Source: a virus (taxonomy: Duplodnaviria; Caudoviricetes). From it: a stretch of DNA of 24,905 nucleotides. The stretch is from positions 1-24,905 of the IMG/VR virus record IMGVR_UViG_3300045241_000035; one strand, written 5' to 3'. The notes under the pieces are model-generated. The model worked only from the letters and a program-made list of their open reading frames with translations, had not been told where the DNA came from and ran no database searches. The position numbers were made by a program, and so were the translations under genes. Below, piece after piece: positions 6,638 to 23,577 of the stretch (position 1 is its first letter; the number at the start of each line of letters is the position of its first letter).

Positions 6638-7095
6638 GGCGGCGGCTGCACGATCGGGATTATCTGGCCGCCACCCAGATCGATCAGGACCGTCTGCGCC
6701 TCCGAGATCGCCGGCAGCACCGTTGCGTTGGCTAGATAATGTTCCTGGTGATTGGCGAAGGTCCACCATGCCAAGCTCCCTCGGTCGGTCAGATCGCTAT
6801 CTACCAAAATTTGATCTGAGGGGATACCGGGGGCTTGCATGCCCCAATCCACCGGCAAGCTATGGGTGAAATCGTTGTGCGCATGCTGGTGGTTGAGGTG
6901 CCAGGGGCCGGCGCGGATCGCGGTCTCGGCGCGCGACGGCGCCGGGTCGATGAAGTACGGCATCACCGACCACTGATGCAGCGGGTTCATGAACTGATAG
7001 TAGTTGCGGTGAGTCATGGCGTGATCGAACGCAAACGCCGCCTGCGCGCGATCATCGTCGGCGGCGGGAAAAACCAGTAGCGTGGCGGTGGTCAT
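6595..7095 (-). CDS. Hypothetical protein with three His clusters (166 aa)
   Basis: GGGAG RBS before ATG; motifs DHAMTH, NHQHAH, NHQEH. Confidence 0.7.
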   Translation of the reverse strand: MTTATLLVFPAADDDRAQAAFAFDHAMTHRNYYQFMNPLHQWSVMPYFIDPAPSRAETAIRAGPWHLNHQHAHNDFTHSLPVDWGMQAPGIPSDQILVDSDLTDRGSLAWWTFANHQEHYLANATVLPAISEAQTVLIDLGGGQIIPIVQPPPWIDPARWTLPPFW

Positions 7096-7228
7096 GGCGC
7101 TCCCAACGGTACGCTGCCCACAATTGATGGCACGCCATATTGCGGCTATCGACCGTGATCCAACTGACTAACGTTCGCCAGTTATATGGCTTCACATTGA
7201 AAAGCCACTTATAGACCAACCGTTTCAT
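7052..7228 (-). CDS. Small hypothetical protein (58 aa, MKRLVYKWLFNVKPYNWRTLVSW...GFSRRRR), not in ORF track
   Basis: Manually translated; ATGA overlap with stop of 7225-7530; fills an AT-richer gap. Confidence 0.35.
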   Translation of the reverse strand: MKRLVYKWLFNVKPYNWRTLVSWITVDSRNMACHQLWAAYRWERHDHRHATGFSRRRR

Positions 7229-7530
7229 TCGCTTTTTGTAAATAGTCTGCGGCTTCTCGCCTCGCGCGACAGCAGCGTCGATGAAGGGAAATCCGGCGCG
7301 CGGGTGTTGTGACTGCCGATCGGATCGAATTTGCGCGGCGTGATGCGGTCCATTTCGAAATCCGAACTACCGTTTCGAATGGCGCCGCTTGGCCCGACGC
7401 GCGGTTCGGTGCCGAGCCGTAAGGGCCCGGCGAGTGAGCGATCGGATCTCAAGATCCCGTCCGCTGTCTGAAAATATCCGACCGGATTGCGTTTGACCGG
7501 TGCCCATTCACGCTGATTCTCTCGCGACAT
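7225..7530 (-). CDS. Hypothetical basic protein (101 aa)
   Basis: GGAG RBS upstream of ATG; in operon orientation. Confidence 0.65.
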   Translation of the reverse strand: MSRENQREWAPVKRNPVGYFQTADGILRSDRSLAGPLRLGTEPRVGPSGAIRNGSSDFEMDRITPRKFDPIGSHNTRAPDFPSSTLLSREARSRRLFTKSE

Positions 7531-7921
7531 CTGATGCTCCTCTGGTCCGCCGCAGCGGCACGCCGATGGTTTTGAGCGCGTACAGCACTTCGTCCAGCGA
7601 CGCGCAGACGAATACCTCGGTGCCAGCGGCGCGCAGTTTGTCGTGCATCTCCAACTGCGCCCGCGACAGCGTGCCCTTGTAGGATTTCAGCTCGATGCCG
7701 AAGCAGCGGCCTTGGTGAAACAGCAGGATGTCCGGCATGCCCTGCTTGAGGCCACAGCCCTTGAGCCGGCCGGCGGTGGACCGCGTCAGCACGCCCCAGC
7801 CGGCCGGGAAGGTGGTGTACAGCGCCGGCGGCAGCAGCGCCCAATCGAGAAACTGCGCCACCGTGGCGTGCAGCTGGTTCTCGGTCGGCTCCGGCGGTGT
7901 CAATCCGAAATTGCGGCTCAT
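7508..7921 (-). CDS. VRR-NUC domain nuclease (PD-(D/E)XK)
   Basis: TENQLH...GLKQGMPDILL...GIELKSYKGTLSRAQ...LRAAG matches the VRR-NUC motif series. Confidence 0.88.
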   Translation of the reverse strand: MSRNFGLTPPEPTENQLHATVAQFLDWALLPPALYTTFPAGWGVLTRSTAGRLKGCGLKQGMPDILLFHQGRCFGIELKSYKGTLSRAQLEMHDKLRAAGTEVFVCASLDEVLYALKTIGVPLRRTRGASDVARESA

Positions 7922-8016
7922 CGGCGGCTGCTCCTGACTGGTCCGGTGCGGCCGCCGGGCCTGGGCGACTTGCGCCCAGGTATTCCTTTAACGGCGGATT
8001 TTCGTATACGTGCCAT
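7918..8016 (-). CDS. Arg/Lys-rich microprotein 6 (32 aa, MARIRKSAVKGIPGRKSPRPGGRTGPVRSSRR)
   Basis: Manually translated; TGATG coupling upstream and ATGA coupling to VRR-NUC. Confidence 0.7.
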   Translation of the reverse strand: MARIRKSAVKGIPGRKSPRPGGRTGPVRSSRR

Positions 8017-8114
8017 CAGTATCGCCCGTGCTTGCGTCGTCCGCGCCCTTTCCTGCGCCCACGGTGGGGCGAGGTGAAGAACGCGCCGAGTTTGCGTCGG
8101 CCTCTACGTGCCAT
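8016..8114 (-). CDS. Arg-rich microprotein 5 (32 aa, MARRGRRKLGAFFTSPHRGRRKGRGRRKHGRY)
   Basis: Manually translated; GGAGG RBS; TGATG overlaps on both sides. Confidence 0.75.
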   Translation of the reverse strand: MARRGRRKLGAFFTSPHRGRRKGRGRRKHGRY

Positions 8115-8293
8115 CAGTACCTCCCGCGTCGTCGCGAGCTTCTAGGCCGTTGCCTGCCGCCAACTGGACTGCAGGCTCGGGTCTCCTTGGCCCGGGTTCT
8201 TGGGACAGGTACTTCGGTCCGAGGTTTTCTGGTGCGGATTTTACCAGCAGGATCGACGCGGGAGCGCGGGCCAAGGTCGACACCTTTTGCCAT
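8114..8293 (-). CDS. Arg-rich microprotein 4 (59 aa, MAKGVDLGPRSRVDP...RPRSSRRRGRY)
   Basis: GGAGG RBS; TGATG overlaps on both sides. Confidence 0.72.
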   Translation of the reverse strand: MAKGVDLGPRSRVDPAGKIRTRKPRTEVPVPRTRAKETRACSPVGGRQRPRSSRRRGRY

Positions 8294-8454
8294 CACAACC
8301 TCCGCATTTTGCGGGCTCCGAATCGCGGGCCCTTACGATAAGAATTAGGCCGGGGGTGCCAGTTCGGCAGCCTCCAGCCGTTGGGTCTCAGCTCCTTGGG
8401 CTGCAACGACCTGCGAAGATTTCGTGTGACGTTGAGCCCATGGCGGAGCGGCAT
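8293..8454 (-). CDS. Arg-rich microprotein 3 (53 aa, MPLRHGLNVTRNLRRSLQPKELRPNGWRLPNWHPRPNSYRKGPRFGARKMRRL)
   Basis: Manually translated; ATG 9 nt after upstream stop; TGA overlaps next ATG. Confidence 0.65.
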   Translation of the reverse strand: MPLRHGLNVTRNLRRSLQPKELRPNGWRLPNWHPRPNSYRKGPRFGARKMRRL

Positions 8455-8463
8455 GTGAAACGC

Positions 8464-8538
8464 CTATTTGCGTTTACGTGCCCTGATCCGTCTGGCGCGC
8501 CGGGTCTGCTTGAGCCGGTGAGTTCTGCGTCGCGCCAT
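8464..8538 (-). CDS. Arg-rich microprotein 2 (24 aa, MARRRTHRLKQTRRARRIRARKRK)
   Basis: Manually translated; GGAGG RBS 8 nt upstream; ATG 2 nt after previous stop. Confidence 0.75.
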   Translation of the reverse strand: MARRRTHRLKQTRRARRIRARKRK

Positions 8539-8540
8539 GG

Positions 8541-8597
8541 CTACCGCCTCCGGCGCCCGCGAAATCGCAACCTGCGTCCTCGTCTGCGTCTGGCCAT
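8541..8597 (-). CDS. Protamine-like microprotein 1 (18 aa, MARRRRGRRLRFRGRRRR)
   Basis: Manually translated; GAGGAG RBS 6 nt upstream of ATG; 12 of 18 residues Arg. Confidence 0.75.
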   Translation of the reverse strand: MARRRRGRRLRFRGRRRR

Positions 8598-8655
8598 GCT
8601 CTTCTCCTCTGTTGAGTCGGCTGGGTACTTTGACGCCCGGAAATCTAGAATCTGC

Positions 8656-10269
8656 TTATGCTCCCCACAATGTCCTCTCCTCGGTCATGATGTGGAGGCG
8701 CTCGATGGTAAAATCCGGCGAAACGCTCTCCAAGTCAACAGCGCCCGCGATGCCGGCGCCGGAGATGGGCTGCGGTTCCATGCCGTAGCGTTTGCCCGGT
8801 GGGATCTCGAACCCGATGTCTTCGACCCCGCCCGGAATGCCGCCGGCGCCGGAGCTGAAGGTGCCGGTGAACGAGGCCCCACCGCCGTGGTTGTCGTAGA
8901 ATTCCATGAATAGCCGCTTGCCGCTCTTGATCGCCAGCTGCGACATCCCGGTGCCGCGTATGTACTTGGTCGAGAGCCGCTTTTTCAAAGCGTTATCCGG
9001 TTGCGCGAACAGCTGGTACAGGCGGTCACCGTCAGTGCCGTAAGGCGTGATGACGCTGTCCTGCTCGTAGGCGCCGATATTGGTCAGCTCCAGGTTTTGC
9101 GACGCCACCGACCAGAATTCGGTCTGCACCCTGGGGTGCCACATCAGCAGCATACTGCGAGTGACGCCGAACGGATCCTTGAAGCGGCCGTTGCACAGCA
9201 GCACGCGCTGGCCGAACATGGTGGCGGGGCACATCGTCGGCAGGAACGTCGAGGCGTCCAGAGTGTCGTAGATGTTGGTGATCTTGTCGCCGATCTCACG
9301 CGCCTCGCCGCCGCGCATTTCGAAGATTCCAGCGCCCGTGAACAGCTGCATGTAGCGGCCGATGCGCCCCACCGGACGCGGAAAGCGCTGACCGATCTGC
9401 GGATCGATGTTTTCGTAATTCATGTTGGTGGTGAAGGGCGCATCCGGCGTACCCTGGCCGGCCAGCTGCACGTTGGCGATCAGATCGGTCGATGAATCGC
9501 CGTAGACGTACAGATAGCCGCTGGCTGCGGCCAGATCCTGGTAGCTGTAGGTCAGCTTGTCGCCGAAATAGCCGAACGAGCCGCCGCCGTCTACGGTGGC
9601 GAAGTTGGCGCCGTTCGATGGTGCGGAAAAACTCACCACGTCCTTGCCGGCGACAAACAACCGGCTCTGGTACACCTCCATGCAGTAGATGCCGGGCAGT
9701 CCGCTCGGCATGGTGAAGGTGGTGCCGGTGGTTTCCGCCGAATCAGTCAGCCAGTCCGGCGCCGGATCGCCGGGAGCGGAAAGCAGCGTGCCATCCCAGG
9801 CGTACAGCCCCTTCGGCGACCCGAACAGCACCCCGCCGGTCTGTCCGGCGACGCTGCCGAAGAATTGCGGTCGCCACACCTTGGCGCTGGCCCAGTAGTA
9901 CGGCGGCGCGGTCGGGGTCCACGCAGCTCCGACATGGGTCACCACCTGAGTGTCGAGGTCGACCTGATCGATGGTGCCGTCGTCGAGGAACATCCAGCCC
10001 AGTCGCCCCGGCGGCGGCTTCTGGAATTGCGGCGTGGTGTTGCCGATGAAGCCGAAGAACATCCGCACGATTTTGGTGCCGGCCGGCGCGGTGTAGATCG
10101 CCGGTCCGTGGCCCCAGCACGAGCGCAGATTGCCGGGGGCGATGGCAAATAAATTCTCATTCCAGAACTCCTCACGATGATCTATACTGCCCCTTCGGCC
10201 CTGCTGATTGAGACCGCGCCACTCTTCTAAGGTCAGTAACGCGGGAGGGTTGTCGCTTTGAATCGCCAT
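8656..10269 (-). CDS. Tail tubular/nozzle protein (functionally P22 gp10 / T7 gp12-like beta-propeller) (537 aa)
   Basis: Beta-rich sequence with VYQSRLFVAG...VSFSAP and GYLYVYG motifs typical of podophage nozzle proteins; position after adaptor. Confidence 0.72.
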   Translation of the reverse strand: MAIQSDNPPALLTLEEWRGLNQQGRRGSIDHREEFWNENLFAIAPGNLRSCWGHGPAIYTAPAGTKIVRMFFGFIGNTTPQFQKPPPGRLGWMFLDDGTIDQVDLDTQVVTHVGAAWTPTAPPYYWASAKVWRPQFFGSVAGQTGGVLFGSPKGLYAWDGTLLSAPGDPAPDWLTDSAETTGTTFTMPSGLPGIYCMEVYQSRLFVAGKDVVSFSAPSNGANFATVDGGGSFGYFGDKLTYSYQDLAAASGYLYVYGDSSTDLIANVQLAGQGTPDAPFTTNMNYENIDPQIGQRFPRPVGRIGRYMQLFTGAGIFEMRGGEAREIGDKITNIYDTLDASTFLPTMCPATMFGQRVLLCNGRFKDPFGVTRSMLLMWHPRVQTEFWSVASQNLELTNIGAYEQDSVITPYGTDGDRLYQLFAQPDNALKKRLSTKYIRGTGMSQLAIKSGKRLFMEFYDNHGGGASFTGTFSSGAGGIPGGVEDIGFEIPPGKRYGMEPQPISGAGIAGAVDLESVSPDFTIERLHIMTEERTLWGA

Positions 10270-10632
10270 CGAATTACCCCTGAATATGTGCGCGAGTTGC
10301 TCGACTATGACCCGGAGACGGGTGAGTTAACTTGGCGCGAGACCAAGAGTGGACGAACCAGCAAAATAGCCGGGACAGTCCAGCCTTGCCACAACGGGTA
10401 TCGTAGGAAGGTTGTGATCGACTACGGGATGTACATGGCGCATCGCGTCATCTGGCTTTGGATGACCGGGAAGTGGCCTCGTGGGGATATTGATCACAAA
10501 GACCGCAACGGTCTTAACAATAGGTGGACCAATTTGCACGTGGTTACCAAGGCGGAAAACAACAAGAATCGCGTAAAGAAGTTTAACTGGACAAAAAAGC
10601 CTCCCGGTCGCAAGCCGTGGGTCAATGTTTAG
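10258..10632 (+). CDS. HNH homing endonuclease (HNH_3 type)
   Basis: RELLDYDPETGELTW N-terminus, YMAHRVIWLWMTG, IDHKDRNGLNNRWTNL...ENNKN; GGAGG 9 nt before TTG start; lower GC than flanks. Confidence 0.93.
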   Translation: MNRHRITPEYVRELLDYDPETGELTWRETKSGRTSKIAGTVQPCHNGYRRKVVIDYGMYMAHRVIWLWMTGKWPRGDIDHKDRNGLNNRWTNLHVVTKAENNKNRVKKFNWTKKPPGRKPWVNV

Positions 10633-12492: not shown

Positions 12493-13521
12493 TTACGGAG
12501 GCGGAGCCGCCGGGAATCCAGCCTGACCTCCAGTGATGCCTCGGATGATGACGCCGGTCGATGGCTTGGAGCAGACCAGATTAAGCGCGGTGAGCGACAG
12601 TCCGACGCTGGCGATCTGGCCCTGCGGAATGGTCGAATACCAGCCGGTCCAGGCGAAGTTGGCGTCTTCGTGAATAACCAGCGTGATGTACTTGCTATTG
12701 AAGCCGAAAGCCGTTCCGACCGGGCAATTGAGGTCAAAAAAGATCGGAGTGTCGCCAAGTAGTAGGCCTCTAAAGCCTGAATTAACCGGATCATCCTTGC
12801 CCCAGCGGCTCGACGGGTCGTTGTTGTAGCGTTCCACCGTCATGAAGTCGGTCAACAGTGTCGTCCAGTCCTCGACCGACATCACTACAAAATCCAGTGC
12901 TTCGCCGCCGGAGTTTTTCACCGCCTTGAGCAGCGTCGGGATCAGAGCGGCGCGGGTCAGCACCGCACCTGCGGTGGCGATATTGAGACCGGCCCAGGTC
13001 GGGAAGGTGGCGCGATCGAGACCGCCGTAGATGCCGGTGGCGCCGTAGGCGTCCTGCAGCGAGAACATCTGCAGCACGTTGGCGGTGGGCGGGCCGAACA
13101 GCGCGGCCGACAGCGACGCTAGCGCGGAATTCTTCAGGTCATTGAGCTTGAGCATCAGGCGGGAGGCCACGGCGATGGCATCCTGGGTCACCAGTTGCTC
13201 AAGACCCAACGATGACACTGGGGTTGCCAGTGCGCATAGGTTGAATTCGGCGTTGACGGTGGCGGCGACATCGGTCGGCAGGTTGAACTGGCCGGCCGGC
13301 CCAATCCAGCTCGATGTGACGTATTGGCCGGTCTGCACCGGCTGGGTGTAGGGCGAGACGCCGCCCGAGGCGCGGATGGCATTGCGCAGCAATAGCGCCA
13401 GCAAAGGATTCTGTCGGTACAAAAGAACCACGACCATTTGCGCAAAGACACGTCTGACGGTCGCTTCTAATTCCAGCCCAATCGGGCCTGAGGGGATCAG
13501 GCCAGAGCCTAAAATGGGCAT
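12493..13521 (-). CDS. Major capsid protein (HK97 fold expected) (342 aa)
   Basis: Size, GGAGG RBS, position after scaffold; NPLLALL, YGGLDRATFPTW, NSGFRGLLLGDTPIFFDLNCP, FNSKYI segments resemble podophage capsid proteins. Confidence 0.85.
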   Translation of the reverse strand: MPILGSGLIPSGPIGLELEATVRRVFAQMVVVLLYRQNPLLALLLRNAIRASGGVSPYTQPVQTGQYVTSSWIGPAGQFNLPTDVAATVNAEFNLCALATPVSSLGLEQLVTQDAIAVASRLMLKLNDLKNSALASLSAALFGPPTANVLQMFSLQDAYGATGIYGGLDRATFPTWAGLNIATAGAVLTRAALIPTLLKAVKNSGGEALDFVVMSVEDWTTLLTDFMTVERYNNDPSSRWGKDDPVNSGFRGLLLGDTPIFFDLNCPVGTAFGFNSKYITLVIHEDANFAWTGWYSTIPQGQIASVGLSLTALNLVCSKPSTGVIIRGITGGQAGFPAAPPP

Positions 13522-13533
13522 ACGTGCCTCCCG

Positions 13534-14088
13534 CTAAAACTTGCGTTGTTTGTTGCGATCTTCGTCGCGGCGGATTGCGCCCAGAATTTGCTTGCGAGCC
13601 CAGCTCTCGGGATCGGCGGAGATGTCCGCGAAGCCTTCCTGCTTGGAATGATCCCAAAAGTGATCGCGGCCGGCGTCGGCGTCGGCGTCGCTCTGCCGTG
13701 GCTGCTTAGCGACCCGGTATTGTGCAGCGACCTCGTAGTCACCGATGTTCTTTTCCAGCATGAACTTTTCCAGGTCCTTCATGCCATCGTCGGTGAAGCC
13801 GTATTCGTCCTGAGTCTTTTTGCGAATCTCCTGGAAGCGCGCCTCCTGCGCATCGGCGGCTTTCTTGCGCTCCAGATCCTCGAACCTTTTGGTCTCGTGA
13901 TCGATGCGCTGATTGATGCGGCTCTCGATGTCGTAGTCGGGAATCTGGACCTGGGGGTAGGCCTGCTTGATCAGCCGCTTGGCTTCCTTGCCCAACTGTG
14001 GGTGGTTGTAAATCGGCTCAACGAAGTCGGCGATTTGCGCGCGGGTCATGAGGCGATTGTATTCCTCGTCCGATATTTCGCGCGGCAT
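13534..14088 (-). CDS. Capsid scaffolding protein (184 aa)
   Basis: Charged coiled-coil protein directly upstream of capsid gene. Confidence 0.65.
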   Translation of the reverse strand: MPREISDEEYNRLMTRAQIADFVEPIYNHPQLGKEAKRLIKQAYPQVQIPDYDIESRINQRIDHETKRFEDLERKKAADAQEARFQEIRKKTQDEYGFTDDGMKDLEKFMLEKNIGDYEVAAQYRVAKQPRQSDADADAGRDHFWDHSKQEGFADISADPESWARKQILGAIRRDEDRNKQRKF

Positions 14089-14099
14089 GGTGGTGCGCC

Positions 14100-14285
14100 C
14101 TAGTTGTTGTTGGTCTTGCCGATGATGTTGGGCTGCAGCGGCACGCCGCCTTCAGGCTTGGGAACGATCTTCGGAATCGCGCCCCACTCCGAGACCTCGG
14201 ACTGGGTATCGACCTGCAGCACGGTGCGCGGAGGGGTGTCGGGCGGGGTGGCGATCGGGGGGTCGTAGCTACGGTTCTGGGCCAT
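14100..14285 (-). CDS. Small hypothetical head-module protein (61 aa)
   Basis: GGAG RBS; between portal and scaffold. Confidence 0.7.
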   Translation of the reverse strand: MAQNRSYDPPIATPPDTPPRTVLQVDTQSEVSEWGAIPKIVPKPEGGVPLQPNIIGKTNNN

Positions 14286-14309
14286 GATGGGTCTCCGGTT
14301 TTTTCCTTA

Positions 14310-14813
14310 CTACGCGCCGGGTAGCGGCGTCGAGGGCATCGGCGCGGCTCCGCCCGGAGGCGTCGGGCCAGCCGGGCCGCCCTCTTGACCTGCTTTGGCG
14401 GCGGCTTGCTGCTGCATGATCTTCTGCAGCAGGGCATTGCGGATGGTGTTGCGTAGCATGTCCTGCAGCTGGGTCTGCTGCACGCCGGAAGTGGTGGCGC
14501 CCTGTTGGCCAACGTGGCGGCTGAGCGACTGCAGCGCCTTGAGCGTGTCGCGATGAATCGGGCTGCCGGGCGCCAGTCCTGGCAGCGCTTGTTGCAGCAT
14601 TCCCATGGCGTTCATCACCATGGTCATCGAGGAGGCTTGATCGCCGGGGCCAGGGCTTGAGACCTGCGGCCCGGTTTGACGTCGGGACAGCGCCGCGAGC
14701 AGCGGGCCGCCTCCAGGCTGTGGGGGTCCACCAGGAGCACCGCCACCGGCGGCGTCGGGGTCGGGTCCGCCAGGACCGGGTACGGGGTCGGTTACGGAAT
14801 CGCCGTTTGCCAT
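14310..14813 (-). CDS. Hypothetical Pro/Gly/Gln-rich protein (167 aa)
   Basis: Low-complexity ends with a helical core; immediately after portal. Confidence 0.7.
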   Translation of the reverse strand: MANGDSVTDPVPGPGGPDPDAAGGGAPGGPPQPGGGPLLAALSRRQTGPQVSSPGPGDQASSMTMVMNAMGMLQQALPGLAPGSPIHRDTLKALQSLSRHVGQQGATTSGVQQTQLQDMLRNTIRNALLQKIMQQQAAAKAGQEGGPAGPTPPGGAAPMPSTPLPGA

Positions 14814-14852
14814 GGGGCCGGCAAGCTAAACCCGTCCGGCCGGTTCCGCAAC

Positions 14853-16574
14853 CTACCTCCCCCGTGGGGAGCTTCTGCCGCTCTTTTTGCCGGCCCGGCT
14901 GCCGATCCCAATCACGTCGCGGATGATCTCTTCCTGCTTTTCCTGGGCTGCGGCTTCGCCCTGCTTCTTCTGGCGCTGCCGCAACCGCGACAGCAGCAGT
15001 TCGGCGCCCGGCGGATGCAGCATGTGGATCAGGTCCTCGCCATCGATGGCGCCGGCCCGGGCCAGTGCGATCGCGACCTGACGGTTGTCCTCGGCAAACG
15101 CCGGCGAGGCCGAATGGCTATCGACCTGGACCTGGAAATCGTCCGGGAACTCCTTCAGCGTGAATTCGATGCCGTTATCGGTGCGGTAGATGCGCGGATC
15201 CTGGGCCTGCATGATCCGCATGCTGAGATAGCCGCTTTCGGCGAGTTGGCGCTCGACCCGTGCGGCCTGATCGATCAGGCGCGGCGACGAGGTCCGCACC
15301 AGGGTCTGGGCGTGAACGCCAGCGCGCACTCCTGGCTCGCCCTGGCCGCTCATGATCGGGGAGAACCCTGATGCCTCCTCGAACAGACTGAGAATGAACT
15401 GCAGCTCCTCCATGTAGCCCTGCGGCGGCGGCTCCAGCAGCTTGTTGGCTTTGGCGTTCGGGTTGGGGTCGTTGAGGAAGCCGCCCTCGTTGATGATCTT
15501 GAAATACTGCTCTTCGGTGATCGAGGTGAAGCCGGAGAACACCTGTGGTGCGTTGACGTTGCGGTCCCACATCACCTTGATGTCGCGCAGTCGCTTGTTG
15601 AGCACATCCTGCAGCATCTGCACGTCCGAGATCAACGAGCGGCCCCAGAAGTAGCCCGGGGTGATCTGCGGCTGGATCTTGACGAACGAGGTGCGGCCAG
15701 GAACCCGCGACAGATTGCGCCGCGTCACGTCGCCCTCGATGATCACGTCCGGATACACCAGCTGGATGGTGGTGTAGTCACCGCCACGTTCGCGATCTTT
15801 GACCCATAGCTCGCAGAATTTCACAGTAGGGGTGATACGCCGATTTGGCCGCCACGGCGTCGGCACCGGGAACACGTTGACGATGCCGGCGGCTTCGGAA
15901 TTCGGCATCCCGCCAGGATCGCCCAGCGGGTTCAGTCCGCCCACCACCATCTGGTGAAAATAGCTCGGCTGCTCCTCGTCCTTGGTCGTTGGCCGTCCGG
16001 CCTCGATGCGGGCGATGATTTCGCGTCTGCGCGGGTGGTCCTCCAGCAGCGAACGCAGCCGCGACATGGTCGGGTAGGTGACGTGGACGAACGCTTCCTG
16101 CTCGTCGAGGTCGAGGATGGTCTCGCCCAGCACGCCAAAATTCTGTGGATGCACCAGCGCTAGCTTGAAGCCTTCGTCGTGTGGGAAGTGCTTCAGCAGC
16201 TGACAGCCATTGACCATCGACCACGTCACGGCGTCCGCGAAGGTGATGTCAGAGTCGGTCGAGCGGTAGTCGGCGGTCAGCTTCTCCGACACCAGCCGGG
16301 CCCGCTCCAGCACATTGTCGTCCTCGCCGGTATCGAACACCACCTGGAAGCGCACGTCGGTCGGCTGCATCAAAAAGCCGCTCAGCTTGTCGATGAACGG
16401 CTTGGTCTTGTTGTAGATCGCGGCGCGGCTGTCGTAGGTGCCGCAATAATAATATTGCGCAGCGCGGGTGTAGACCATCGCCCGCTCTTCGACGCTGGCC
16501 ATGCATTCGTCTACAACTTCTTTAACCCAAAGCTCCAAATCTCCGTCTTTGTTATCTTTGGGAATTTTGAGCAC
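14853..16574 (-). CDS. Portal protein (P22-like) (573 aa, GTG start)
   Basis: AIYNKTKPFID, GYFWGRSLISDVQMLQDVLNKR, EEASGFSPIMSGQG portal motifs; size and position. Confidence 0.88.
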   Translation of the reverse strand: MLKIPKDNKDGDLELWVKEVVDECMASVEERAMVYTRAAQYYYCGTYDSRAAIYNKTKPFIDKLSGFLMQPTDVRFQVVFDTGEDDNVLERARLVSEKLTADYRSTDSDITFADAVTWSMVNGCQLLKHFPHDEGFKLALVHPQNFGVLGETILDLDEQEAFVHVTYPTMSRLRSLLEDHPRRREIIARIEAGRPTTKDEEQPSYFHQMVVGGLNPLGDPGGMPNSEAAGIVNVFPVPTPWRPNRRITPTVKFCELWVKDRERGGDYTTIQLVYPDVIIEGDVTRRNLSRVPGRTSFVKIQPQITPGYFWGRSLISDVQMLQDVLNKRLRDIKVMWDRNVNAPQVFSGFTSITEEQYFKIINEGGFLNDPNPNAKANKLLEPPPQGYMEELQFILSLFEEASGFSPIMSGQGEPGVRAGVHAQTLVRTSSPRLIDQAARVERQLAESGYLSMRIMQAQDPRIYRTDNGIEFTLKEFPDDFQVQVDSHSASPAFAEDNRQVAIALARAGAIDGEDLIHMLHPPGAELLLSRLRQRQKKQGEAAAQEKQEEIIRDVIGIGSRAGKKSGRSSPRGR

Positions 16575-17464: not shown

Positions 17465-18034
17465 TCACTTTGACGGTGCTGGGTGTGCCCCGCTTGGAAC
17501 ACCGACCACAATCCAGCCAGTTGTTGGTGTCCACGCCACCTTCCAGTCGATCGGGATCGGTGAGCCGCCATTCGGAGGCGGAATTTCCGGCGGCAGATTC
17601 GGCGGCAACACAATCGGATGCTCCGGCTTTGGCTGCGGCTTGACGCCGGGCCCCATCCCGCCACCCCAGAATCCCGGCGGCATGTCAGGTGGACCCCAGA
17701 TGCCGAGTGGCGGCGGCGAACCGGGCGGCGGGAAGTAGATCGGATGCTCCGGATGCGGCTGCGGCTTCACGCCCGGACCCATGCCACCACCCCAGAATCC
17801 GGGAGGCATATCCGGCGGACCCCAGATGCCAAGTGGCGGTTGCGGCTGCCCAGGCGGCTGCGGCGGCTGCGGACCGTAAATCGGATGCGACGGCCACGGC
17901 CCACCGGCAATCGGATGCGCCGGATAAACCGGCGGCTGCGGAGCGCCACCAGGACCACCCGGCATCGGTCCACCACCAACACCAACGTCGGTGTAGAACA
18001 TGACGCCTTGAATCGTAATTGGAATAGATGCCAT
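17465..18034 (-). CDS. Proline/glycine-rich repeat protein (189 aa)
   Basis: AAGGAG RBS; four PxHPI motifs; duplicated 34-aa block; W-rich C-terminal segment. Confidence 0.8.
   Translation of the reverse strand: MASIPITIQGVMFYTDVGVGGGPMPGGPGGAPQPPVYPAHPIAGGPWPSHPIYGPQPPQPPGQPQPPLGIWGPPDMPPGFWGGGMGPGVKPQPHPEHPIYFPPPGSPPPLGIWGPPDMPPGFWGGGMGPGVKPQPKPEHPIVLPPNLPPEIPPPNGGSPIPIDWKVAWTPTTGWIVVGVPSGAHPAPSK
17612..17839 (-). repeat. Intragenic duplication (17738-17839 and 17612-17713) encoding PPLGIWGPPDMPPGFWGGGMGPGVKPQP(H/K)PEHPI
   Basis: 33 of 34 aa identical, with many synonymous differences. Confidence 0.9.
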
Positions 18035-22120: not shown

Positions 22121-22204
22121 AATGTATTTCTTGTTGCCGTGTAGTTGTCAAGGTGAAAAACTTGGCAAGGTTGAATTGCCTAATGAAAAAACCGGGACTA
22201 ACTT
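22121..22204. promoter_or_regulatory. Divergent sigma70-like promoter region
   Basis: AT-rich gap between divergent units; minus strand TTGACA at 22151-22146 with weak or oddly spaced -10 (TACATT at 19 nt); plus strand TTGCCT(22176)-N17-TAACTT(22199). Confidence 0.5.
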
Positions 22205-22232
22205 GCCGCTGACGAGAGATGGAGGAATGGCC

Positions 22233-22985
22233 ATGGGATCAGTAACTGACGGTCCGACCGTCCAAGATGCGCAGGCCATCACCAATGCCCAGAGCGCTGG
22301 CGGGTTTGGCCCCCAGCAACCCGGCGGTTTTGTCGGAGGTGGCGGCTTCGCTCCACAGCAGCCGATCGGCGACATGCAGGCTTCGCTCGGCAACCTCGCG
22401 AGTGCATTCTTCGCGCCAGCGCAGCCGCAGTTCGCGCCGCAGCAGTTCGCGCCGCAGCCCACCCCGTCCTTTGGTGGTGGCGGCGGCAAGGGCGCTAACG
22501 ATTGGGGCGGCGGCGGTATGGGCTTTGGCGGTGACGCCGGATTCGGTGGCGTCGGCTTTGGTGCTCCAGGTGGTGCTCCTTCCGGTGCTCCTTCCGGTGC
22601 TCCTTCCGGAGCTCCTTCCGGAGCTCCTTCCGGAGCTCCTCCAGGTGCTCCTCCAGGTGCTCCTCCAGGCGATCCCAGCTCTCCAGACGGCGTCTTCGGC
22701 GGTGGCACTACGGGAATTAGCGGCGTTGCCCCCGGCAGCACCAGCCCTGCGGCGGGCGGTCTTGGCCTCTCCAGCGGTATGGCGCCAGGATGGGGCGGAT
22801 TCGGTAATAGCCCGGGGTTCGGTGACACCGCTGGGTTCAGCGGAACCGGCACCCCATCCGGAATGGGCATTAGCACCGGTATGGGCCCAGGATTTGGTGG
22901 ATTCGGCAATAGCCCCGGTGATACTGGCGCACTCGGCGGTCAAGGCGGCGACGGTGGCGGCGGCGGCGGAGGCGGCGGCAAGTAA
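22233..22985 (+). CDS. Glycine-rich low-complexity protein 1 (~250 aa)
   Basis: GGAGG RBS at 22221-22225; GAPS/GAPP repeats; ends GGDGGGGGGGGGK. Confidence 0.75.
   Translation: MGSVTDGPTVQDAQAITNAQSAGGFGPQQPGGFVGGGGFAPQQPIGDMQASLGNLASAFFAPAQPQFAPQQFAPQPTPSFGGGGGKGANDWGGGGMGFGGDAGFGGVGFGAPGGAPSGAPSGAPSGAPSGAPSGAPPGAPPGAPPGDPSSPDGVFGGGTTGISGVAPGSTSPAAGGLGLSSGMAPGWGGFGNSPGFGDTAGFSGTGTPSGMGISTGMGPGFGGFGNSPGDTGALGGQGGDGGGGGGGGGK
22572..22667 (+). repeat. 12-bp tandem repeat x8, gg(t/a)gctcct(tcc/cca), encoding (GAPS)5(GAPP)3
   Basis: Read directly from sequence. Confidence 0.95.
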
Positions 22986-23577
22986 GGCTTAGTCATGGGC
23001 GGTTCAGGTTCCGCGACTGATGGCGGGTTTGGCTCGGGCTCTGCCGGGTTTGGTTTAGGCCCTGCACTTGGGTTCGCTCCCAGCGATTCCGTTAGTCCGA
23101 ACTATGGCGGTTTCGGCTTAGCTGGGCAGACCGGTGGATTTGCTCCAAGTTTGGGTAATCTGAGCGGTGGCATCGCCGGGATTTTTGGCGGTCCAGGCTC
23201 CAGCGCTCCCGCAACTGTTGGCGGTAACGTTGGTCAGATCGGCGGCGGTTTGGGCATTGGTGGTCCTGGCGTGGTTGGCGGCGCTCTGGGACCTGGATTC
23301 GGCTATGGCGTCGCGGGCGGCTACGGCCAACAGGCCGGGACACCTAGCCCGTCGATAGGTGCGCCCGGTCAGGGCGTCGATGGTTTCGGTGTTGGTGCGA
23401 CCGGCGTCTTGGGCGCGCCCGGAGGTGATTTCGGCGGCTACGGCTACGGTGGCTTAGGCGATTTTGGCGGCGGCTCCACCGGCTTCGGCCCCGGCTTCGG
23501 CCCTGGTCCTGGTAGCGATGGTGGTGATGGTGGTGGCGGCGGTGGCGGCGGTGGCAAGTAAGGCTTAGTCATGGGCG
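22977..23577 (+). repeat. 25-bp exact direct repeat ggcaagtaaggcttagtcatgggcg at 22977-23001 and 23553-23577
   Basis: Read directly; spans stop codon, spacer and next ATG. Confidence 0.92.
22995..23561 (+). CDS. Glycine-rich low-complexity protein 2 (188 aa), paralogue of protein 1
   Basis: MGGSGSATDG start similar to MGSVTDG; identical GGDGGGGGGGGGK end. Confidence 0.75.
   Translation: MGGSGSATDGGFGSGSAGFGLGPALGFAPSDSVSPNYGGFGLAGQTGGFAPSLGNLSGGIAGIFGGPGSSAPATVGGNVGQIGGGLGIGGPGVVGGALGPGFGYGVAGGYGQQAGTPSPSIGAPGQGVDGFGVGATGVLGAPGGDFGGYGYGGLGDFGGGSTGFGPGFGPGPGSDGGDGGGGGGGGGK

Follow-up and report, generated by a model that had tools for sequence, protein, structure and literature searches.

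An array of chained genes for very basic microproteins in the virion operon of an uncultured soil phage and its relatives

Introduction

Why would a tailed phage carry a run of tiny, arginine-rich genes among the genes for its virion? The question is raised by a 24,905-nt stretch of viral DNA (IMG/VR record IMGVR_UViG_3300045241_000035; hereafter the window), in which an earlier note, made from the letters alone, had pointed out six such ORFs behind the tail nozzle gene and proposed that they encode a system for DNA condensation or charge neutralisation. Passages in PMC3281028 and PMC7096446 state that tailed phages neutralise their DNA by cations and polyamines and not by proteins. Lineage-wide, selected genes for basic microproteins in a virion operon are a direct candidate exception to this rule, and one that is cheaply testable because the peptides can be synthesised. 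They also lie in a blind spot, as genes of 9-60 codons drop below gene-calling floors, and virion proteomics would miss Arg-rich peptides because trypsin destroys them. Here we report that the array of this uncultured soil phage and its relatives is real and, in the literature covered, undescribed, and we infer a function for it.

Six ORFs between the nozzle and VRR-NUC genes

The 735 nt from the stop of the nozzle gene to the start of a VRR-NUC nuclease gene are filled by six minus-strand ORFs of 18-59 aa, all with an ATG start and together carrying a net charge of +80. The first, ORF A (8541..8597), encodes a pure Arg/Gly peptide of 18 aa, 12 of them Arg, and is preceded by a strong ribosome-binding site, GAGGAG (8604..8609, minus strand), whose context GAGGAGAAGAGC recurs in many relatives. 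ORF B (8464..8538; 24 aa, 11 Arg and 3 Lys) carries the motif LKQTRRARRIRARK, and ORF C (8293..8454; 53 aa) belongs by alignment to a WRLPxWxPR...RKG...RRL family. ORF D (8114..8293; 59 aa), with the motif LGPRSRVDPAG, is the most constant member. ORF E (8016..8114; 32 aa, 11 Arg and 3 Lys), which is Arg/Gly-rich with a Phe patch, is variable, and only some relatives have one. ORF F (7918..8016; 32 aa, 8 Arg and 3 Lys; motif SPRPGGRTGPVR) is, by alignment, a short form without the Trp-rich middle found in most relatives. In array order the junctions are a 2-nt gap, a 9-nt gap, three TGATG overlaps and an ATGA overlap into VRR-NUC; GGAG/GAGG sites stand ahead of ORFs A, B, D and E, and there is none upstream of C and F.

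On re-reading, the positions, lengths, counts and junctions agree with the earlier note, which had described ORFs of 18, 24, 53, 59, 32 and 32 aa tiling the minus strand, several of them with GGAG(G) sites. It had singled out four that start with MAR and lack acidic residues, and no Asp or Glu occurs in any of these. Its argument against chance is borne out by 2,000 dinucleotide shuffles, which gave 0-4 qualifying ORFs each and in no case reached 5, against the six observed. An assembly artefact was ruled out by a contig that comes from a run not marked as a source of the window and repeats positions 7770-8646 with 0 differences. At a 60-aa floor, an ORF listing of the window shows only the fourth ORF of the array, D. 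We found no sigma-70 promoter and no minus-strand terminator in positions 7000-9000.

The neighbouring genes place the array in a virion operon. Upstream lies a 537-aa gene (8656..10269, minus strand) that has no Pfam or PHROG match and whose predicted fold resembles podovirus tail chains. The ten best Foldseek rows for its model (mean pLDDT 55.6) are all phage tail complexes, such as those of P22 and Sf6, and the best matches are tail nozzle/hub chains of podoviruses, including the P22 gp10 complex (E 1e-7 to 1e-4); a P22-type tail nozzle or hub is thus the best match for this gene on a partly confident model. Further upstream, the terminase, capsid and adaptor genes have PHROG/Pfam support, and the portal has a weak family match only (E 0.09), plus synteny. 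The interval from the portal to the major capsid gene (12493..16574, minus strand), where distant relatives keep their tiny basic genes, contains none here. Downstream, the VRR-NUC gene (7508..7921, minus strand; PF08774, E 2.5e-5) is coupled to ORF F and is absent or replaced in many relatives. It is followed by a conserved Arg/Gly/Pro-rich gene of 101 aa and net charge +6 (7225..7530, minus strand; matched in 68 of 83 loci), which varies at third positions of its frame in five sequences and is possibly a further member of the basic set. A recurring Arg-rich ORF that overlaps this gene was set aside as a shadow, given that variation in the five sequences follows the 101-aa frame.

The array among relatives

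Searches anchored on the nozzle gene yielded 83 loci, 79 of them with a whole nozzle match and 72 of these with at least 700 nt behind it. In all 72, the 1,300 nt behind the nozzle gene contain 2-9 basic ORFs of this short kind (mean 6.0, a count that includes a few near-duplicate genomes, some ORFs behind VRR-NUC and shadow ORFs among them), compared with control means of 0.92 on the opposite strand and 0.72 per kb upstream. The short Arg-rich ORFs, for which the earlier note had proposed a synteny comparison of the nozzle-to-VRR-NUC interval, are conserved in 72/72 loci. Their peptides fall into the families known from the window, namely A/E (almost only Arg and Gly), B, C, D and F, and into two that it lacks, G and H. 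Among 70 loci with at least 1,100 nt, B occurs in 58, C in 61, D in 66, F in 59, G in 18 and H in 23. G changes place, and the order B-C-D-F is unbroken in 67/67 distinct arrays. The D motif retrieves 47 viral loci, all 47 with a nozzle gene upstream.

Coupling is likewise retained. At D there is a stop/start overlap in 47/68 cases and a short gap in 16/68, and such overlaps or gaps are kept even where other genes have been inserted. One locus (L015:5942-6768) has a 142-aa ORF and a KTSC-domain gene (PF13619, E 1.5e-6) inside an array whose coupling is intact. The recurring C-terminal GRY and RRL are, read directly, encoded by the GGAGG site of the next gene. Over 345 ORFs the composition is 32% Arg, 5% Lys and 3% Asp+Glu, 161 of the ORFs start with MAR, and the median net charge per array is +66. 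The peptides are as Arg-rich as the earlier note described, and four of them are more than basic: B, C, D and F carry short conserved Pro/Gly/Trp motifs besides their basic residues.

Several observations accompany these families. Family H is a basic peptide of 24-40 aa with an ARRNLRKAR-like core, found behind VRR-NUC in 23/70 loci (for example L013:6788-6865 and L017:6592-6672, and from L080:6628 and L215:9717 onward); it has a weak likeness (PHROG, E 0.02-0.06) to the N-termini of three function-unknown PHROGs. In L098, L099, L101-L103, L105, L110 and L121, the first tiny ORF, within 70 nt of the nozzle stop, has no start and is replaced by a conserved inverted repeat; the ORF is intact in L096 and L130. 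The array also occurs on two MAG contigs labelled Xanthobacteraceae and Caulobacteraceae, which may be mis-binned phage contigs.

Selection on the peptides

In each of the six families that can be aligned (B, C, D, F, G and H), relatives differ mostly at the third position of codons. Pairwise differences at positions 1/2/3 are 0.27/0.18/0.60 for B, 0.39/0.36/0.58 for C, 0.33/0.26/0.63 for D and 0.31/0.25/0.61 for F. The dN/dS comparison suggested in the earlier note gives omega values of 0.046 for B, 0.108 for C, 0.098 for D and 0.179 for F, against 0.119 for the last 50 codons of the nozzle gene, with 0.036 for G and 0.129 for H; selecting members by motif pushes omega downward, and saturation affects some of the distances. 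Of the window peptides these values cover B, C, D and F; A is of low complexity. Invariant Arg, Ser and Leu columns draw on both codon blocks, and synonymous variation is as free in the array as in the nozzle gene. B, C, D and F are under purifying selection and are protein genes.

The region might instead be non-coding, either as a structured RNA or as the shadow of a plus-strand gene, or might reflect chance in GC-rich DNA. Such DNA does yield Arg-rich ORFs by chance, as the rate upstream illustrates, and support from omega extends to B, C, D and F but not to A and E. Third-position variation, the omega values and the shuffles speak against this explanation, as does the finding that in some relatives stops interrupt each of the five other frames of B, C, D and F. 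A structured RNA or a conserved plus-strand ORF, which the earlier note had named as grounds for abandoning its proposal, was not found: an Rfam search of the window gave no match, and ORF D aligned across eight close relatives has no supported covarying structure (covariation term +1.28). We regard the non-coding or chance reading as largely refuted and scarcely credible. Because of purifying selection (omega 0.05-0.18), the four alignable window peptides are better understood as products of protein genes than as traces of a hidden RNA, and there is good support for reading the six ORFs as genuine genes of a virion operon that are coupled in translation and encode very basic peptides.

Tiny basic genes in the wider lineage

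The post-nozzle array is missing from two GenBank phages whose capsids are 36% identical. Directly behind the portal gene they carry a pair of 13-aa Lys/Arg ORFs, unannotated and each with a good ribosome-binding site, and they also have a 54-aa basic gene; their GenBank annotation places opposite-strand ORFs over the tiny basic genes. We scanned for this sister clade with the capsid of a GenBank relative and used the best 80 loci of an estimated ~1,800 stretches, plus the two records. Among the loci that reach far enough upstream, 52/58 have 1-2 tiny basic ORFs in the head module, and here too variation falls on third positions. A further 20 loci with capsid identity below 60%, three of them near-copies, were found via distant nozzles. 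Between their portal and capsid genes, a basic ORF of 9-22 aa is visible by eye in 17/20, with none seen in 3/20, and a strict filter recovers a post-portal basic ORF in 9/15; 1/20 has basic ORFs behind the nozzle gene. Across 74 loci with capsid identity of at least 70%, such basic ORFs stand behind the nozzle gene in 64/64 tested and behind the portal gene in 2/63.

In a quick capsid tree of 42 chosen rows, its root not fixed, all 17 post-nozzle rows group on a single branch (SH-aLRT 95) and the post-portal rows fall outside it. The tree and the positions in relatives suggest that the cassette moved from behind the portal to behind the nozzle gene and then expanded, from the one or two basic genes of distant relatives to the motif-bearing families of the window's clade. 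Both genomic homes sit among virion genes. ORF A may be the counterpart of the post-portal peptide of distant relatives, judging by likeness in composition and start, and kinship of pure Arg/Gly peptides cannot be proved by sequence. In the fetched stretches of Myxococcus phage Mx8 and Stenotrophomonas phage BUCT555, with capsids ~26% identical, we saw no such ORF with a ribosome-binding site. One distant relative has a 51-aa basic ORF with a ribosome-binding site and no family match far downstream of its nozzle gene (L222:15222-15374).

The sister clade also bears on the idea that the ORFs serve regulation of the late transcript, with Arg-rich-motif peptides binding phage RNA in the manner of lambda N, or with ribosome-stalling leaders tuning downstream genes. 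Between its two 12-14 aa basic ORFs behind the portal, a conserved hairpin, often with a GNRA loop, and a pseudoknot end just ahead of the second ribosome-binding site (L131:3448-3531, L132:2731-2813, L145:6503-6576 and 33 more loci; alignment A6). Covariation is present in all three helices, 89.4% of cells are paired and 8/15 pairs have changed on both sides, a level reached in 0/500 shuffles; Rfam has no match for the structure. An RNA beside the peptides is what regulation of this kind would lead one to expect, but the RNA model of the pseudoknot finds no match in the window or in 40 other loci, and ORF D of close relatives lacks a supported structure, as noted above. The freedom of synonymous sites in the array, the unrelated genes that sit inside it in L015 and the absence of a Pfam antiterminator match count against RNA regulation as well, and a leader needs fewer than six selected peptides. 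We consider this explanation very unlikely.

Likeness to known basic proteins

The peptides of at least 20 aa and 20 variants match no named Pfam, PHROG or PDB family, including J/VP8 and the T4 internal proteins, and Pfam returned no family at E <=0.1 for peptides of at least 20 aa, with protamine, P6.9 and mu among the families searched. PDB profile matches for D and F were rejected as chance-level or implausible (MHC chains, E 0.006), and the ESM Atlas gave no usable match for either. Homologue searches returned 49 proteins related to D and 17 related to F, none of them with a name other than 'hypothetical' or with a Pfam family; no homologue of D is longer than D, which is weak evidence. 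No deposited phage record matches the array DNA. The literature covered, which lay mostly outside subscription journals and supplements with small-ORF catalogues, holds no report of such arrays in tailed phages, and a term search of a review on phage small proteins (PMC11323111) for arginine, basic and capsid found none of the three words. Because there is no family match and the homologues are hypothetical, the array does not belong to the J/VP8, protamine, mu or T4 internal protein families, but by analogy it probably works like them.

The closest parallel within phages is J of phiX174 and VP8 of gokushoviruses and SpV4, which according to PMC11281519 are stand-alone genes for short Arg/Lys-rich peptides with a hydrophobic anchor and a basic DNA-binding part. 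The array peptides are likewise short and very basic, and the motif-bearing members suggest a similar division. The differences are that J/VP8 is a single gene carried by a small T=1 phage with an ssDNA genome, whereas the array comprises 4-8 genes in a podovirus with motor-packaged dsDNA; the window genome has the terminase, portal, adaptor, capsid and nozzle genes of a tailed phage and is not that of a microvirus. T4 IPI, IPII and IPIII are, in a passage of PMC9958956, small proteins of a tailed phage head, where packaging of the array peptides is likewise a candidate. However, IPI inhibits a nuclease, and the sequence that targets IPII and IPIII to the capsid is cleaved off, whereas the array peptides are far shorter and mostly without acidic residues; in place of an N-terminal targeting sequence of about 10 aa, the alignments show by eye nothing in common but MAR.

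Among eukaryotic viruses, the adenovirus proteins pVII, pV and mu (pX) offer a case in which several basic proteins serve one dsDNA genome; mature mu has 19 aa and is present in 100-300 copies according to a section of PMC7998265. These core proteins are cut by a protease from precursors, whereas the array peptides are made directly from tiny coupled ORFs. Sperm protamines and baculovirus P6.9 are small, with Arg runs and a lack of acidic residues. The array peptides, Arg-rich, nearly free of acidic residues and under about 60 aa, share these traits and those of mu, and the likeness to protamines and P6.9 is one of composition only: there is no Pfam match, and full condensation appears too bulky for a phage head. 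Viral basic proteins of this type are named in a part of PMC3281028.

A possible role in the phage head

Head DNA binding is the simplest reading because selection keeps charge and motifs and because both homes lie among virion genes. Whether the peptides are made late, enter the head and there partly neutralise and organise the packaged DNA, in the way of J/VP8 or mu and with no kinship implied, is in our judgement an even call. The stop/start overlaps and GGAGG sites would have the peptides made in linked amounts, late in infection. Since the motor fills a shell that is already complete, they would have to get in while the procapsid is being assembled or by way of openings in the shell, and not together with the DNA as it passes the motor. 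Those made of Arg and Gly alone may act purely through their charge; B, C, D and F may attach to a fixed protein surface, for instance the inside of the shell or the portal, and leave their basic tails to contact the DNA in the manner of J/VP8. The head would thereby gain a lining that binds DNA and either lowers the pressure or protects the genome, perhaps following it into the cell, which is short of full condensation.

There are precedents for parts of this scheme. A passage of PMC9958956 describes small internal proteins of T4 that are built into the prohead at ~360 copies each, with IPI injected, and according to a portion of PMC11281519 the 38-aa VP8 of SpV4 lines the capsid interior with its hydrophobic end buried as an anchor and its basic part on the DNA. 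The window's capsid protein, which is net -3 with 12% charged residues, has no basic arm of its own, in keeping with a role for the peptides in the head; its model (mean pLDDT 43.9) is too low in confidence for the charge of the inner surface to be read. Other evidence points the opposite way. Statements in PMC3281028 hold that there is no evidence for much neutralisation of dsDNA by basic proteins in phages and that tightly packed DNA offers them little space; a part of PMC7096446 describes motor-packaging phages as lacking basic capsid arms and filling a finished shell; and polyamines, in a passage of PMC2771126, reduce the pressure inside the capsid and in vitro can hold back part of the ejection. 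The size of the array is not related to genome length (1-2 peptides on 34-60 kb contigs, against at most ~44 kb in the window's clade), no capsid-targeting sequence shared across the six peptides beyond MAR is visible by eye in the alignments, late-operon positions are common to non-virion genes such as VRR-NUC, the post-portal peptide is missing in 3/20 distant loci, and we found no cultured member of the clade.

Volume constrains the form that such a role could take. With an assumed copy number and an assumed head of 82,000-92,000 nm3, 415 sets of the six peptides at +80 each would cancel ~40% of the charge of a 42-kb genome and occupy ~13,000 nm3. Condensation needs 90% charge neutralisation (a figure given in a section of PMC3281028), which would take ~945 sets and 29,000 nm3 beyond the ~45,000 nm3 of DNA. 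On this estimate partial neutralisation is likelier than condensation, and full protamine-style condensation looks unlikely. Of the proposal in the earlier note, the multi-peptide basic gene system in a virion operon survives, charge neutralisation in the virion is still the candidate that fits best, and true condensation is improbable. A bolder version, that a large uncultured lineage of tailed phages packages its genome with a protamine-like peptide core in a motor-filled head, and that in the window's clade this core has become a kit of 4-8 specialised genes that would set pressure and shield the DNA on entry, seems to us somewhat improbable.

The peptides may alternatively remain unpackaged, coating or compacting phage DNA or the host nucleoid, or binding ribosomes or RNA, and so shutting host expression down late. 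A composition of 32% Arg and 3% acidic residues fits this equally well, and the packing-space objection is avoided. In many members the array is coupled to the VRR-NUC nuclease gene, one array contains a KTSC-domain gene, and a portion of PMC11323111 cites a phage protein that compacts the nucleoid. However, the genes stay in the head or tail block across the lineage, moving only inside that block. Genes with which phages take over the host usually act early and show little conservation, unlike B, C, D and F with their order kept in 67/67 distinct arrays, and we judge a cytoplasmic role unlikely. Action on membranes, another option in the earlier note, finds no support, as the six window peptides have no hydrophobic stretch and a highest 17-residue hydropathy of -0.44.

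The acidity of the portal, nozzle and scaffold proteins (net -10, -13 and -5) raises another alternative, in which the peptides are assembly cofactors or cement whose basic patches bind one of these proteins and for which DNA binding is secondary. The position of the genes directly behind the portal or nozzle gene agrees with this, and conserved Trp/Pro/Gly motifs imply a specific partner. Yet the members that are simplest and occur most widely have 9-14 aa, almost all of them Lys, Arg or Gly, and no specific motif, and the tails differ freely in length and number, so that a cofactor role strikes us as distinctly unlikely.

Other features of the window

The major capsid protein (12493-13521, minus strand) has unusually few charged residues and is 75-97% conserved within the clade. 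Between the adaptor and nozzle genes, an HNH endonuclease gene lies on the opposite strand (10258-10632, plus strand). A Pro/Gly-rich ORF of 189 aa with an internal repeat and no family match is found between the terminase and portal genes (17465-18034, minus strand). At 22122-23561 (plus strand), two adjacent Gly/Pro-rich ORFs of 287 and 188 aa both end in a poly-Gly run followed by Lys, and the first of the pair contains tandem GAPS/GAPP repeats.
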